From positions 1 through 52,510 of IMG/VR virus record IMGVR_UViG_3300010052_000059: 52,510 nt of DNA, one strand, 5' to 3'. Made by a program: the position numbers and the translations under genes. The stretch is from a virus. Lineage: Duplodnaviria; Caudoviricetes. Positions 12,719 through 42,222 of the stretch are shown here, in pieces. How positions within the stretch are numbered: the stretch's first letter is position 1; the number at the start of each line of letters is the position of its first letter. The notes under the pieces were generated by a model. That model was not told the origin of the DNA. It ran no database searches and saw only the letters and a list, made by a program, of their open reading frames with translations.

Positions 12719-12772
12719 GCGCTTCGGATGCCAGTTTTTGGAGGCTCGCCTCCGGCAAGACGGCATCCGCGC
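12719..12772 (+). repeat. UUC-bulged hairpin motif copy 1 (extended loop)
   Basis: GCGC-TTC-GGATGCC...GGCATCC-GCGC. Confidence 0.8.
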
Positions 12773-12839
12773 GGATTTAGCCCGAATGGGCGCGTGAGTT
12801 GAGCGGGACCGGTGCCGGCGTACCGCTCGAAACGATTTC

Positions 12840-12919
12840 ACTGCGGTAGCTCAGCGGCAGAGCGCGAGGCGTCGCGAGACGTGTCGAGGCCGGCGGTTCA
12901 ATCCCGCCTCGCAGTTCCA
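12840..12919 (+). ncRNA. tRNA-like RNA without an anticodon loop
   Basis: Acceptor ACTGCGG/TCGCAGT+T-CCA; D arm GCTC-AGCGGCA-GAGC; T arm GGCGG-TTCAATC-CCGCC; central arm CGAGGCGTC-GCGA-GACGTGTCG. Confidence 0.85.
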
Positions 12920-13055
12920 TCGCTTTGTGTGCGTCGCATGTTCTCACCTCTGGGTCCTTCATTCGGTCAGCCGGTCTGAATCTAAGCAGGCCGGCGGACT
13001 GAAGGACAAGGGGTTCAACGCGAACGGGGGTTCGTATGCTGGGGGCACACACAAC

Positions 13056-13104
13056 GACCGGAGGCTGGCGCCAGCGCTTGAGCGCCGCCGTCGGTCTTTT
13101 TTTT
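13056..13104 (+). terminator. Intrinsic terminator (tR-like)
   Basis: GACCG..GGC.GGCGC / GCGCC.GCC..CGGTC stem followed by T8. Confidence 0.8.
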
Positions 13105-13158
13105 GCGCCTCAGCGAGTCCACGACGCGACCACGCGAAATTCACCCTCTGCCCTGCGG

Positions 13159-13812
13159 GTGAAGGATGACGAGTCCACGGTGAACGTTTCACACGACACC
13201 GTCAGCCGCCGAGTCCACGGTGACGAAGGGTCTCCTGGTCGTGGTCGCCCACGGCGAGTCCATGGTTCGGGTGAGCTAGACCATGGTCGAGAGGCCGTGG
13301 TCGCTCCGCATGCGGAGGCAGCCGAGAACCCCTGGAAACCTCTGATCGAAATGGGTGTCAAAGACACCGTCGACGAGTTCGTTTTCTACATGCTGAAGGG
13401 CGACCCGCCCTATCGGCTGAACCACGAGGAATGGCTGACGCAGTTCCGGCGCTGGGCGCTGCACGAACGCGTCGCGCCAATTCCCGCATGCATTTTTCTC
13501 GCCGCCTTCGGCAAGCATCCGGCCGTGCGCAAGGGGCGTGACCGCCTCAAGCAGCGCGACGGCAAGGTCATCCGGCTCGACACCGAGGCGCGCAGCCCGA
13601 AACGTCAGGTCGTGTACGTGCTGGCGATGCCGCGCAAGCTGCCCGGCACCGTGCCGGTTGGCGACATCGTGCCGAAGCAGACGCTGCCGACGAAATCCGA
13701 ACGCGCCGCTCAGAAGGCCGCCGAAGCCGCGCAGGAGCAACTGCCGCTTGTCGCTGGCACTTCGGTTGCCCACTCCGCAACCGCGTATGAGCCGATGCGG
13801 AGGGTCGCATGA
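13159..13812 (+). CDS. Hypothetical phage protein (start uncertain)
   Basis: Long ORF, ATGA-coupled to the next gene. Confidence 0.6.
   Translation: MKDDESTVNVSHDTVSRRVHGDEGSPGRGRPRRVHGSGELDHGREAVVAPHAEAAENPWKPLIEMGVKDTVDEFVFYMLKGDPPYRLNHEEWLTQFRRWALHERVAPIPACIFLAAFGKHPAVRKGRDRLKQRDGKVIRLDTEARSPKRQVVYVLAMPRKLPGTVPVGDIVPKQTLPTKSERAAQKAAEAAQEQLPLVAGTSVAHSATAYEPMRRVA
13757..13786 (+). repeat. UUC-bulged hairpin motif copy 2
   Basis: GCAC-TTC-GGTTGC-CCACTCC-GCAACC-GCGT. Confidence 0.7.
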
Positions 13813-14003
13813 CCGCGCACCTGCTCGCACACACGGCCGGATGCGCGGCGTTCGTCATCGTCGCCATCTTCGGCGTGAGGCTTTTTCTGATGTGGGTCGA
13901 TCGCCGTGTTCGTGCCGCTCAGCGGCGCGCGGCTGACGACTGCTGGGTGATCGTGCGTAACGCGCCGCGCTTCAGCGCGACCGTTGATTGTTTCGACGAC
14001 TAG
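13809..14003 (+). CDS. Small membrane protein
   Basis: Hydrophobic N-terminus; GGAGGG RBS. Confidence 0.55.
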   Translation: MTAHLLAHTAGCAAFVIVAIFGVRLFLMWVDRRVRAAQRRAADDCWVIVRNAPRFSATVDCFDD

Positions 14004-14310
14004 CGCGGGTGAGCGCTTTGAACTTAAGGGGGTGACTGTGAAAAAGGACTGTCGAATTCGTGTGAGGCTTTACGCCAACGGCGTTTGCTTGCCGATTTCC
14101 GAGTGTGAGATCGCCGCTGGCTACACGATGGAAAGCGTGGTGCAGGGCTACGAGGACGAGACCGAGACGAACCTTGCGGGCATGCCGCATCGCGAGTTCT
14201 GGCTGGTCGCTCATGCCGATATTCCGATCGATGTGCCGATCGCCGAGGTGATCGTTCCGACGGAGATCATGGATAGCGCGGTCAGCGCGTCCGCTTCAGC
14301 CGCCGCGTAA
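13984..14310 (+). CDS. Hypothetical acidic protein (true start probably about 14032-14038)
   Basis: ORF followed by a hairpin at about 14318-14348. Confidence 0.5.
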   Translation: MIVSTTSAGERFELKGVTVKKDCRIRVRLYANGVCLPISECEIAAGYTMESVVQGYEDETETNLAGMPHREFWLVAHADIPIDVPIAEVIVPTEIMDSAVSASASAAA

Positions 14311-39944: not shown

Positions 39945-39978
39945 GTCACTACACCCCCGCTTCCGTCAGGAGAAACCA

Positions 39979-40179
39979 ATGTCAGACCGCATCTACGTCG
40001 CTCCGGCGGCGGGGAAGAGCCCCCGCGCGCCGTTGCCGCCCTACGCCGTCGTGCCGGCCGAGGGTGGCTGGTTCACCGACTGCGCCGCGTGGCGCCGCCT
40101 CGAGGAGGCGGGTGACGTCACGATCTCGAAATCCGCACCGGCCGCAAAGAAGGCGGCCGCCCCCAAGGCCAGCAAGTAA
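39979..40179 (+). CDS. DUF2635/Mu gp38-like protein
   Basis: V.PAAG...PAEG...WRR....GDV. Confidence 0.75.
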   Translation: MSDRIYVAPAAGKSPRAPLPPYAVVPAEGGWFTDCAAWRRLEEAGDVTISKSAPAAKKAAAPKASK

Positions 40180-40192
40180 GGAGCCCTGACCG

Positions 40193-41731
40193 ATGCCCGT
40201 CAGCTACAATCACATTTCGCCGTCGACCCGGTTGCCGCTGTTCTGGGCGGAGATCGACCCCAGCCAGGCCGGCACCTTCCAGAACTACCAGCGTGCGCTG
40301 GTGCTCGGCTACAAGACGGCCGCAGCGCCCGCCACGGCAAATGCTCTCGTGCGCGTTTCCTCGCCGGACCAGGCCAAGGCACTGTTCGGCCGCGGCTCGC
40401 ATGGCGCGGGCATGTTCGAAGCCTGGTTCAAGAACAACACCTTCGATGAAGTGTGGGGCATTGCTATCGCCGAGCCTGGCGCAGGCGTCGCCGCAACCGG
40501 CTCGATCGAGGTGACGGGCACCGCAACTGCTTCCGGTATCCTGTCGCTCTACATTTCGGGACGCCGCGTGCAAGTCGGCGTGACTGCGGGCGACACGAAA
40601 TCCGCCATCGCGACGGCGATCGCCGCGGCGATCAACGCCAATCTCGACCTTCCGGTTACGGCAGCCGTGGTCGACGATGCCGACGATGACACGGTCGCCC
40701 TGACCGCGAAGTGGAAGGGCATCGACAGCAACGGCATCGACGTCCGTGTGAACTACCTCGGCCAGATCGGCGGCGAAGCACTGCCCGCCGGCGTGACGCT
40801 TACGATCACCGCCATGGCGAGCGGCACAGGCAACCCGGATCTCACGAGCGCGCTCGCCGCGATCGGCGATCAGGAGTTCGATACGGTCGTCATCGGCTGG
40901 AACGACGCCACGACGTTCAACGCTGTCGACCTCGAATGGAGCCACGTTGGCGACGTCGGCCGCTGGAGCTGGTTGCGTCAGTTGTTCGGTCACGTCTACA
41001 GCGCCAAGGATGGCACGGTCGGCGACCTTCAGACGTTTGGTCAGACCCGCAACGGGGCGCATATCACGTGCTTCGGCTATCGCGGTTCGCCGACGCCGTT
41101 CTGGGAGCGCGCCGCGATGTTCGCTGCTCAGGCGCACCGCGCGCTGATGAACGATCCGGCTCGTCCGCTGCACACTCTCCCGCTCAACGGGATGCTGCCG
41201 GCGATCATCAGCCAGCGCTTCACGAAGGGCGAAAAGAACTCGCTCGCGTTCGATGCCATCTCCGTCTGCAAGGAGACGGAGGACGGCGTCTGCCAGATCG
41301 AGACGTCGTTCTCGATGTACCAGAAGAACACGCATGGTCTCGACGACAACGCGTTCCTGAAAGTGCAGACGCTCGCAACGCTGGCGTATGTGCTCCGCTC
41401 GCTGCGCTACCGCATCGTGCAGAAGTTCCCGCGCCATAAGCTCGCGAACGATGGCACCCGATACGGACCCGGTCAGGCCATCGTGACGCCGAAAGTCGCG
41501 AAGGCGGTCATCGTCGCGCACTATCGCGAGCTCGAGTATCTCGGCCTTGTCGAGAACGCCGAAGCCTTCGCTGCGAACCTGATCGTCGAGCGCAACGCCA
41601 ACGACCCGAACCGCCTCGACGTGCTCTATCCGCCGGATCTCGTCAACCAGCTCGACGTGTTCGCCGTGCTGGCGCAGTTCCGCCTGCAGTATCCGGCGCA
41701 GCTGCCGGATCAGGCTCTCCCCATCGCCTAA
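40193..41731 (+). CDS. Tail sheath (Mu gpL-like)
   Basis: PLFWAEID, DPARPL, KFPRHKLA, PPDLVNQL. Confidence 0.95.
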   Translation: MPVSYNHISPSTRLPLFWAEIDPSQAGTFQNYQRALVLGYKTAAAPATANALVRVSSPDQAKALFGRGSHGAGMFEAWFKNNTFDEVWGIAIAEPGAGVAATGSIEVTGTATASGILSLYISGRRVQVGVTAGDTKSAIATAIAAAINANLDLPVTAAVVDDADDDTVALTAKWKGIDSNGIDVRVNYLGQIGGEALPAGVTLTITAMASGTGNPDLTSALAAIGDQEFDTVVIGWNDATTFNAVDLEWSHVGDVGRWSWLRQLFGHVYSAKDGTVGDLQTFGQTRNGAHITCFGYRGSPTPFWERAAMFAAQAHRALMNDPARPLHTLPLNGMLPAIISQRFTKGEKNSLAFDAISVCKETEDGVCQIETSFSMYQKNTHGLDDNAFLKVQTLATLAYVLRSLRYRIVQKFPRHKLANDGTRYGPGQAIVTPKVAKAVIVAHYRELEYLGLVENAEAFAANLIVERNANDPNRLDVLYPPDLVNQLDVFAVLAQFRLQYPAQLPDQALPIA

Positions 41732-41793
41732 ACCGACGCCAGCAGCCGCGCCGGCGCCGGCGCGGCTCCATCATCTGACAAGGAGACGAGACA

Positions 41794-42159
41794 ATGGCGA
41801 ACAACCGCATCGCGGGCGTCGCGTTCGTGAAATTCGACGGCCGGCAGCTGCCCATTCGCGGCAACTGGAAGGTCGGCTTCAACAAGCTCAAACGTGAAGG
41901 CATCGCCGGCCAGGACCGCGTGCACGGCTACAAGGAAATGCCCGACGTGCCGTTCATCGAGGGCGATGTGTCGACGACAGAAGACGTGTCGCTGCCCGTT
42001 CTCCTCGGCATCAAGGATGCAACGGTGACGATCGAGATCGCCAACGGCAAGGCGTACGTGCTGCGCAATGCCTGGACGGCGAACAGCTACGAGGTTGAAA
42101 CCGAGGAAGGCAAGCTCGGCGTTCGCTTCGAGGGCATGGAAATCGACGAAATTCGATAA
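41794..42159 (+). CDS. Tail tube (Mu gpM-like)
   Basis: RIAG, GQD.VHGYKE, NGKAYVL.NAW. Confidence 0.9.
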   Translation: MANNRIAGVAFVKFDGRQLPIRGNWKVGFNKLKREGIAGQDRVHGYKEMPDVPFIEGDVSTTEDVSLPVLLGIKDATVTIEIANGKAYVLRNAWTANSYEVETEEGKLGVRFEGMEIDEIR

Positions 42160-42193
42160 GCCGCGCCGGGGTGGCGGTTGGCTCTTTTTAGTT

Positions 42194-42222
42194 GCGCTTC
42201 GGTTGCCCAGTGCCAACCGCGC
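42194..42222 (+). repeat. UUC-bulged hairpin motif copy 8
   Basis: 29 nt identical to 21973-22001; intergenic. Confidence 0.9.

Follow-up and report, generated by a model that had tools for sequence, protein, structure and literature searches.

The 52,510-nt stretch of DNA analysed here, called the window (positions 1 to 52,510 of the IMG/VR virus record IMGVR_UViG_3300010052_000059; Duplodnaviria, Caudoviricetes), is a provirus adjoining recJ and tRNA-Glu. It carries eight copies of a short bulged hairpin which are, in our judgement, probably miniature mobile palindromic repeats of about 30-40 nt (some of 54-60 nt), belonging to a family of the Hyphomicrobiaceae and similar to the repetitive extragenic palindromes (REPs) and the Rickettsia palindromic elements (RPEs). 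Comparison with relatives showed that the element is an insertion, that it is polymorphic among them and that it tolerates both orientations. The hairpin is a family of the Hyphomicrobiaceae and their phages and not a trait of this phage lineage. The first-pass annotation of the window, made from the letters alone, had offered three candidates for the hairpins, i.e. a nut/put-like antitermination or protein-loading signal, a processing site, and a REP-like mobile palindrome; the data favour the last.

Eight copies of one bulged hairpin

The 12-mer core of the family, GCGCTTCGGWTG, occurred seven times in the window by exact match, at 12719, 18420, 20417, 21973, 26364 and 42194 on the + strand and at 28816 on the - strand. 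The chance expectation was 0.13, and seven occurrences were reached in none of 100 shuffles. The eighth copy, at 13757, was one base off the core. The hairpins follow a plan of a GCGC outer stem, a TTC bulge, a GGNTG(C) inner stem and CCA at the start of the loop. Listed with their settings in open reading frames (ORFs) and, for some, the covariance-model score and minimum free energy (MFE), they are:

12719..12772, + strand: copy 1, a long 54-nt variant with a nested hairpin in the loop, intergenic; 24.5 bits, -30.8 kcal/mol
13757..13786, + strand: copy 2, with a degenerate outer stem GCAC...GCGT; 45 bits, -9.9 kcal/mol, z -1.5
18420..18455, + strand: copy 3, 36 nt long, in the part of the DNA methyltransferase ORF 17486-18514 that encodes the C-terminal tail
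20417..20452, + strand: copy 4, with the same 36-nt sequence as copy 3, within the small ORF 20320-20601
21973..22001, + strand: copy 5, in the C-terminal tail of ORF 21097-22041 (weak DUF6362 match)
26364..26393, + strand: copy 6, antisense within the minus-strand gene 26038-27327; 58.8 bits
28788..28816, - strand: copy 7, the sole minus-strand copy, intergenic before ORF 28826-29482; 56.7 bits
42194..42222, + strand: copy 8, in the gap that separates the tail tube gene (41794-42159) from the tail assembly chaperone gene (42249-42797)

For the covariance model, 124 distinct family members were aligned that came from bacterial genomes, viral contigs and the window itself. An unfiltered run of the model on the window returned exactly these eight hairpins with scores of 24.5 to 58.8 bits, the runner-up scoring 16.1 bits, and found none in the host flank (1-2800) or in the leftward arm. 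The family of eight with seven members on the + strand and one on the - strand, as well as its absence from flank and arm, had been proposed in the first-pass annotation and were thereby recovered, while the coordinates given there for four copies (18419, 20415, 21969 and 26360) were off by 1-4 bases. The runner-up, at 36939-36971 on the + strand, lies at the end of the protease gene and contains the core with one mismatch; it may be a decayed ninth copy or a chance match.

RNA folding of the eight copies gave an outer stem of 4-6 bp, a bulge of 3 nt and an inner stem of 5-7 bp. The loops measured 6-8 nt, or 29 nt including the nested hairpin in copy 1, in agreement with the variable loop length described earlier. 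The outer stem was extended by paired flanks (GTCG/CGAC, CTCG/CGAG, GG/CC), which were likewise as first described. The MFE ranged from -9.9 to -30.8 kcal/mol across the copies, and copies 2 and 8 folded weakly relative to shuffles (z -1.5 and -1.4).

Copies 2, 3, 4 and 5 lie on the sense strand within ORFs, mostly in C-terminal tails, and copies 1, 7 and 8 are intergenic. Copy 2 occupies the final 18 or so codons of ORF 13036-13812, copy 3 lies just past the part of the methyltransferase matched by the family model (residue 313), and copy 6 falls in a linker of gene 26038-27327 that is rich in Pro, Gly and charged residues. Copy 1 has a terminator-like hairpin with a T-run just 5' of it and a phage tRNA-Ala on its 3' side; long variants resembling it are present in G004, a genome of the host family.

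Maintenance of the stem

In the 124 distinct copies, 92.2% of the stem cells pair against 86.0% in shuffles, and the observed covariation score was reached by none of 500 shuffles. Because the copies had been gathered by a pattern permitting one mismatch per arm, a bias towards pairing is built into most stem columns; the pattern left three pairs free. The free pair in the middle of the inner stem (23-38) is AU in 52 copies, UA in 45, GC in 10, CG in 3 and unpaired in 14, so that the swap from GGATG/CATCC to GGTTG/CAACC seen first in the window is real. The free sixth inner pair is CG in 101 copies and unpaired in 23, and the free extra outer pair is paired in 91 of the 124. In a close relative, represented by metagenome contigs from 4 runs of one study, the outer stem of copy 3 had a G to C change at 18422 together with a C to G change at 18453. 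The hairpin itself is thus kept by compensatory change. The covariation, the double change at 18422/18453 and the varied reading frames and strands argue for selection or maintenance acting on the hairpin and not on a peptide or a fixed-spacing operator, as the first-pass annotation had also concluded.

The bulge and the start of the loop are more than 90% conserved among the 124 copies, and the consensus has TT...TG as its 5' flank. Single copies carry a T-rich stretch on the 5' side, with CGG, CGT or CGA as the 3' flank. With their T-run ahead of the hairpin, single copies do not conform to canonical intrinsic terminators; a U-run directly 3' of the hairpin was found only inside arrays, where it is the T-rich spacer of the next unit. 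No Rfam family matched the hairpins at its gathering score, nor at E values up to 1 in a scan of 12600-29000.

Filled and empty sites in relatives

A comparison of orthologues for empty sites, which the first-pass annotation had suggested, showed that four of the window sites (copies 4, 5, 7 and 8) are empty in relatives. At copy 4, protein alignment of ORF 20320-20601 with its orthologue in the relative L285 placed a 10-residue gap exactly at the hairpin. At copy 5, metagenome contigs of about 93% identity have 16 nt in place of 55 nt and so are shorter by 39 nt (13 codons), and copy 5 with its GTCG/CGAC extension is a 39-nt insertion. The common sequence restarts right after a TTT that is present in the empty allele. 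In these contigs a copy stands some 0.5 kb further upstream instead, in the interval 21387-21466. The site of copy 7 is empty in L224 and L228 and that of copy 8 in L224 and L226, with conserved flanks in each case. At the two sites read at base level no target duplication was seen.

Both orientations were met at corresponding sites. At the end of the methyltransferase gene, where copy 3 lies, the hairpin is on the + strand in the window and on the - strand in L285, while at the site of copy 5 the L285 copy matches in place and orientation. In another relative an inverted copy directly follows 19319, a site at which the window instead has 268 nt of different sequence, and L285 also has a copy there. 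Within coding sequence the hairpin was present only as multiples of three bases.

Homologues of gene 26038-27327 in two Hyphomicrobium genomes (L088 4671-6068 and L278 9746-10930) each have a copy of their own in the same disordered linker; that of L278 aligns elsewhere than copy 6 of the window, and the subtypes differ. The linker of this gene family has thereby taken up a translated hairpin copy in three genomes. The family has no strong Pfam match and consists of a hydrophobic N-terminal part, the linker and a weak C-terminal HTH_23 match.

Several differences between close relatives, gene-sized indels among them, end at copies. For the window and its near relatives, the indel and replacement junctions observed at copies lie after 19319, in the interval 21387-21466 and at 21950-22006. 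The loci L004 and L011 are 96-99% identical on both sides of a 1.4-kb gene that distinguishes them and is bordered by copies; a duplicated gene tail of about 80 nt is also present there and is a possible crossover. The leftward-arm gene of the window at 9389-10039 (- strand) has a homologue of 62% identity in L285 (10952-11479, + strand), which is relocated and inverted among methyltransferase genes and is directly followed by a hairpin copy.

These junctions recall the PeSL promoter/stem-loop cassettes of T4-type phages (Comeau et al. 2014, PMC4122927), and the hairpins might similarly be recombination linkers of 30-40 nt that act as crossovers for module exchange and are kept because phages adapt faster with them. 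We consider this quite improbable. Seven of the eight copies do lie in the variable early/accessory region (12.7-28.8 kb), and the indels of the window, the gene difference between L004 and L011 and the relocated L285 gene all fit such linkers. PeSLs are likewise short conserved stem-loops, dispersed in variable regions of phage genomes and located at indel or replacement junctions of close relatives. Yet PeSLs are phage-specific composite promoter-terminators, whereas the present family is shared with host chromosomes, occurs in both orientations and also in coding sequence, and has no demonstrated promoter. Linkers would leave the chromosomal copies beside housekeeping genes and the arrays described below unexplained. 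Moreover, the duplicated gene tail could have been the crossover between L004 and L011 instead, and an association with junctions is expected of any dispersed repeat.

Spread in the genomes of the host family

The two-arm pattern of the hairpin was found at 120 or more loci of the bacterial genome collection. Among the 120 matches listed, 71 were canonical, with a complementary middle pair and a loop of up to 12 nt starting with CC. Among 80 of those listed, the matches spanning 28-31 nt belonged to Hyphomicrobium, Hyphomicrobiaceae, Hyphomicrobiales or alpha-proteobacterial metagenome-assembled genomes; among the matches listed, those in other phyla look like chance because their gaps are long or odd. 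In the 201 genomes of the host family the strict hairpin pattern was present in 50, on both strands and in up to 39 copies each, while the reversed pattern, used as a control, had a single match in the whole set. With 150 candidates scored per genome, so that the counts are lower bounds, the covariance model found at least 83 copies in G004 and at least 81, 49, 43 and 30 in four further genomes.

In lineages like that of G004 the hairpin family is chromosomal. By the strict pattern G004 has 17 copies on the + strand and 19 on the - strand, and by rough gene calls made in this analysis 57 of 59 copies are intergenic. They adjoin gyrA, xseA, the PNPase gene and genes for an amidase and an M3 peptidase, among others. 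The upstream gene is co-oriented with 41 copies and opposed to 14, and only 2 copies lie in divergent gaps. Head-to-tail arrays occur at many loci, with up to 6 copies by the strict pattern and more by the model, at periods of 32 or 38-40 nt; within them each hairpin precedes the T-rich spacer of the next unit.

An abundant host repeat on both strands, the finding that the first-pass annotation had set against a phage signal, is therefore present in part of the host family, with G004 as an example, and few copies were seen in the genus nearest the host flank. Among the genomes searched, the best match to the recJ flank of the window had 79% identity, and the nearest genomes belong to the genus holding H. 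zavarzinii. In the 26 genomes of this genus, 10 had no model match and 13 had 1-3. The remaining ones were G200 with 8 matches, G212 with 16, of which 13 are on one 16.8-kb contig syntenic with the early region of the window, and G208 with 11, all of them in an unrelated prophage, 40 kb of DNA bearing genes for head, adaptor, tail, primase and integrase. Because the matches are few, or in the two richest genomes almost entirely on prophage DNA, the family is largely prophage-borne in this genus. The lack of the hairpin in the host DNA of the window thus retains its meaning, given that copies in the nearest genus are few and prophage-bound in the two richest genomes.

The chromosomal copies bear on the view that the hairpin is a functional element selected in host and phage, either as a site for a host factor or as a stem-loop that ends or protects transcripts and is recruited by phages for insulation, its spread being secondary. 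We hold this to be unlikely. It would account for the conservation of bulge and loop start, for the position of copies 3' of genes, with divergent-promoter gaps holding only 2 of the 55 classifiable copies of G004, for the terminator-like look of array hairpins followed by a T-rich spacer, for the sites common to the window and L285 and for the high density in phages. Against it stand the T-run, which in single copies is 5' and not 3', and the orientations with respect to transcription, which are sense for 13 and antisense for 8 clusters in tandem gene pairs of G004 and 13 versus 10 in the provirus G227. Since the former difference is not significant, a rule of transcription sense was rejected. 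There are also copies inside coding sequence, and both the viral records closest to the window by capsid and 151 of the 201 family genomes manage largely or wholly without the element.

A link to the replication strand was rejected too, as the comparison of orientation with the local GC skew gave 31 of 59 copies in G004 and 60 of 110 other loci. One genome differs in its strand use: in the single 4.47-Mb contig G173:C1, 62 of 65 model matches at about 25 loci (L218, L229-L274) are on the + strand. Its GC skew is zero or positive in 20 of 20 evenly spaced 20-kb samples, although the gene-strand majority switches along it; this could reflect an odd replication mode or an assembly artefact.

Two further observations concern the larger organisation of the repeats. 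A subfamily of G004 (L190, L191, L192, L199, L200, L203 and L205) has about 25-30 nt of extra conserved flank per side; these flanks can pair, which gives a larger composite repeat of about 80-90 nt. In another genome, the 30-kb segment L216-L217 (G066:C6:226000-256000) contains very few confident ORFs, about 19 hairpin copies and a mosaic of nested repeats of 150-900 bp with 77-99% identity.

The hairpin in viral relatives

Seven viral loci encode a major capsid protein 67-87% identical to that of the window. The five closest viral records (80-87% identical), one of which is rated 100% complete, have 0, 0, 0, 1 and 0 copies of the hairpin. The more distant provirus G227 (35-55% protein identity) has 23 copies, 13 on the + strand and 10 on the - strand, and these include copies in the same gap between tube and chaperone genes that holds copy 8 in the window. 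In viral contigs a 16-mer of the family gave 52 matches, with an exact closing arm in 16. There was one copy for about every 6.6 kb of the window, every 1.3 kb of L285 and every 1.6 kb of G227, against one for about every 45 kb of G004, where the copy count is a lower bound.

Small RNA hairpins are well known from phage early operons, such as nut (boxB) of lambda and put of HK022. These sites occur once or twice per operon, in the sense orientation only, downstream of early promoters, and are conserved within a phage group. A phage regulatory RNA signal of this type (antitermination, loading or processing), read in the sense of the rightward operon, appears very unlikely for the present family. 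In its favour, the transcribed strand carries seven of the eight copies, several copies lie between cistrons, and bulge and loop are conserved. Yet the window has eight copies, of which copy 6 is antisense inside a gene, one site has opposite orientations in the window and L285, and the family has no counterpart in Rfam. The phage-signal reading is not supported because chromosomes of the host family carry the hairpin on both strands and in many copies, the capsid-closest records nearly lack it, and copies are antisense or inside genes. The phage-specific candidates of the first-pass annotation were given up on these grounds.

Points weighing against a mobile palindrome

Several results weigh against a mobile palindrome, and against one that is a plain parasite of the phage. 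Mobility is deduced from filled and empty sites and was not seen as transposition, and the same sites could also stem from precise deletion. Two sites are common to the window and L285 despite a protein identity of 50-66%, which could reflect conservation or a hot spot. The density in phages exceeds that of the richest chromosomes, and in the genus nearest the host flank copies are nearly confined to prophages, so that the enrichment could mean a use to phages. The orientation in phages leans towards sense, with 7 of 8 copies in the window, 9 of 11 in G208, 9 of 13 in L285 and 13 of 23 in G227. The phage of the window and the prophage of G208 share no protein at an E value of 1e-6.

A dedicated enzyme did not emerge either. 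PF01797, the domain of the RAYT transposases of REPs, was found in 45 of the 201 genomes, yet in only 3 of the 15 with six or more strict copies, and it was not found in G004, G040, G033, G066, G122, G137, G144, G173 or G003. Mobilisation by a RAYT was rejected on this lack of association and on the absence of a GTAG tag from the consensus. Pfam and PHROGs scans of about 40 window ORFs revealed no HUH or transposase domain, the integrase-sized ORF being left outside these scans.

A working model for spread of the element

We nevertheless favour mobility, for which the following mechanism can be envisaged. The element would spread as a single-stranded DNA hairpin recognised in trans by a putative enzyme, the conserved TTC bulge and the CCA(C) at the loop start being the candidate recognition features. 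It would land just 3' of a short T-rich stretch, which may at least in part be the target, and would insert without target duplication. For the prophage the hairpins are probably dispensable. Their effects there would likely be those of stable stem-loops in polycistronic RNA, by 3'-end protection or weak pausing, and those of short dispersed homologies where genes are gained, lost or swapped.

A more detailed scheme, which we put forward as possible but doubtful, combines these features in a selfish single-stranded DNA element that is independent of RAYTs. Phages would be its main vehicles; it would multiply preferentially on replicating phage DNA, ride unrelated prophages between Hyphomicrobiaceae and seed some chromosomes. 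Its insertion 3' of the T-run would be strand-polar and perhaps tied to the direction of replication, for which the near-absolute strand bias in one complete chromosome can be invoked.

Comparison with known palindromic elements

The data support a REP-like family with unusual features, i.e. a bulged stem, no tag, no RAYT, head-to-tail arrays, enrichment in phages and copies inside genes. The REPs and bacterial interspersed mosaic elements (BIMEs) of Escherichia coli and Pseudomonas are likewise imperfect palindromes of 20-40 nt that number from some tens to over 80 per genome, lie outside genes, mostly on their 3' side, and cluster in arrays, with compensatory changes in the stem and copy numbers that differ sharply among related species. 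Unlike them, the present family has neither the GTAG tag nor a co-occurring Y1 transposase (PF01797), its stem is split by a conserved 3-nt bulge, its arrays are head-to-tail and not inverted pairs, and it is dense in prophages and found inside genes as well.

Comparable too are the CGTC REPs of alpha-proteobacteria, which include RPE-4 and RPE-6 of Rickettsia. As described by Di Nocera et al. (2013, PMC3733652), they have uninterrupted stems of 8-9 bp, loops of 4-5 nt, A-T in the first two stem positions, a CGTC end and a CCA tail, and mostly form head-to-head dimers. Both families are alpha-proteobacterial, have no known dedicated transposase and have some copies that lie in genes and are translated; in-frame presence of this kind was seen here for copy 4, copy 5 and the linker of gene 26038-27327. 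The present family differs from that description by its bulged GC-rich stem, loops of 6-8 nt or much longer and head-to-tail dimers, and the 3' flank bears the complement of CGTC in just 2 of the 8 window copies. Hyphomicrobium is not named in the main text of PMC3733652, and a literature search for such repeats in Hyphomicrobium returned nothing relevant by title and abstract.

Integron attC sites were considered as well. They have inverse-core and core sites and extrahelical bases, occur once per cassette and have IntI nearby. The bulge, the variable loop and the position at gene ends give the hairpins some likeness to attC, which we would set aside in view of the gene-less arrays and the copies within genes.

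The spread of small palindromes without a RAYT is known from the CGTC REPs and the Rickettsia RPEs, and the family described here offers a workable system for it. Copies are polymorphic between close phage relatives, some are translated, and the footprints of their insertion are readable to the single base. Some genera have nearly all their copies on inducible prophages, which are open to passage and sequencing. For phage annotation the family is a caution that hairpins which are conserved, covarying and co-oriented need not be a phage regulatory signal.

Other features of the window

The provirus has the following integrase-sized ORF near the host flank:

2897-4204, - strand: integrase-sized ORF

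Leftward genes extend to 10713 and rightward genes begin at 10869. Pfam and PHROGs matches identified genes for a replication protein, three DNA methyltransferases, terminase, portal, protease, major capsid protein, sheath, tube and tail chaperone. A megablast search of 30000-42300 against GenBank phages gave no match. The terminator-like segment just 5' of copy 1 (12642-12711, + strand) had a non-significant match to the alpha-proteobacterial small RNA family suhB/mmgR (22 bits, E 0.94; gathering score 41). Directly 3' of copy 1 is the tRNA-Ala (anticodon CGC) at 12840-12919 on the + strand, which was called by ARAGORN and scored 42.1 bits with the Rfam tRNA model in a sensitive scan, while a fast scan missed it. 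The three methyltransferase genes are in the early region on the + strand, at 16082-16786, 17486-18514 and 23996-25486, and behind two of them comes a hairpin copy, either in the window or in L285.

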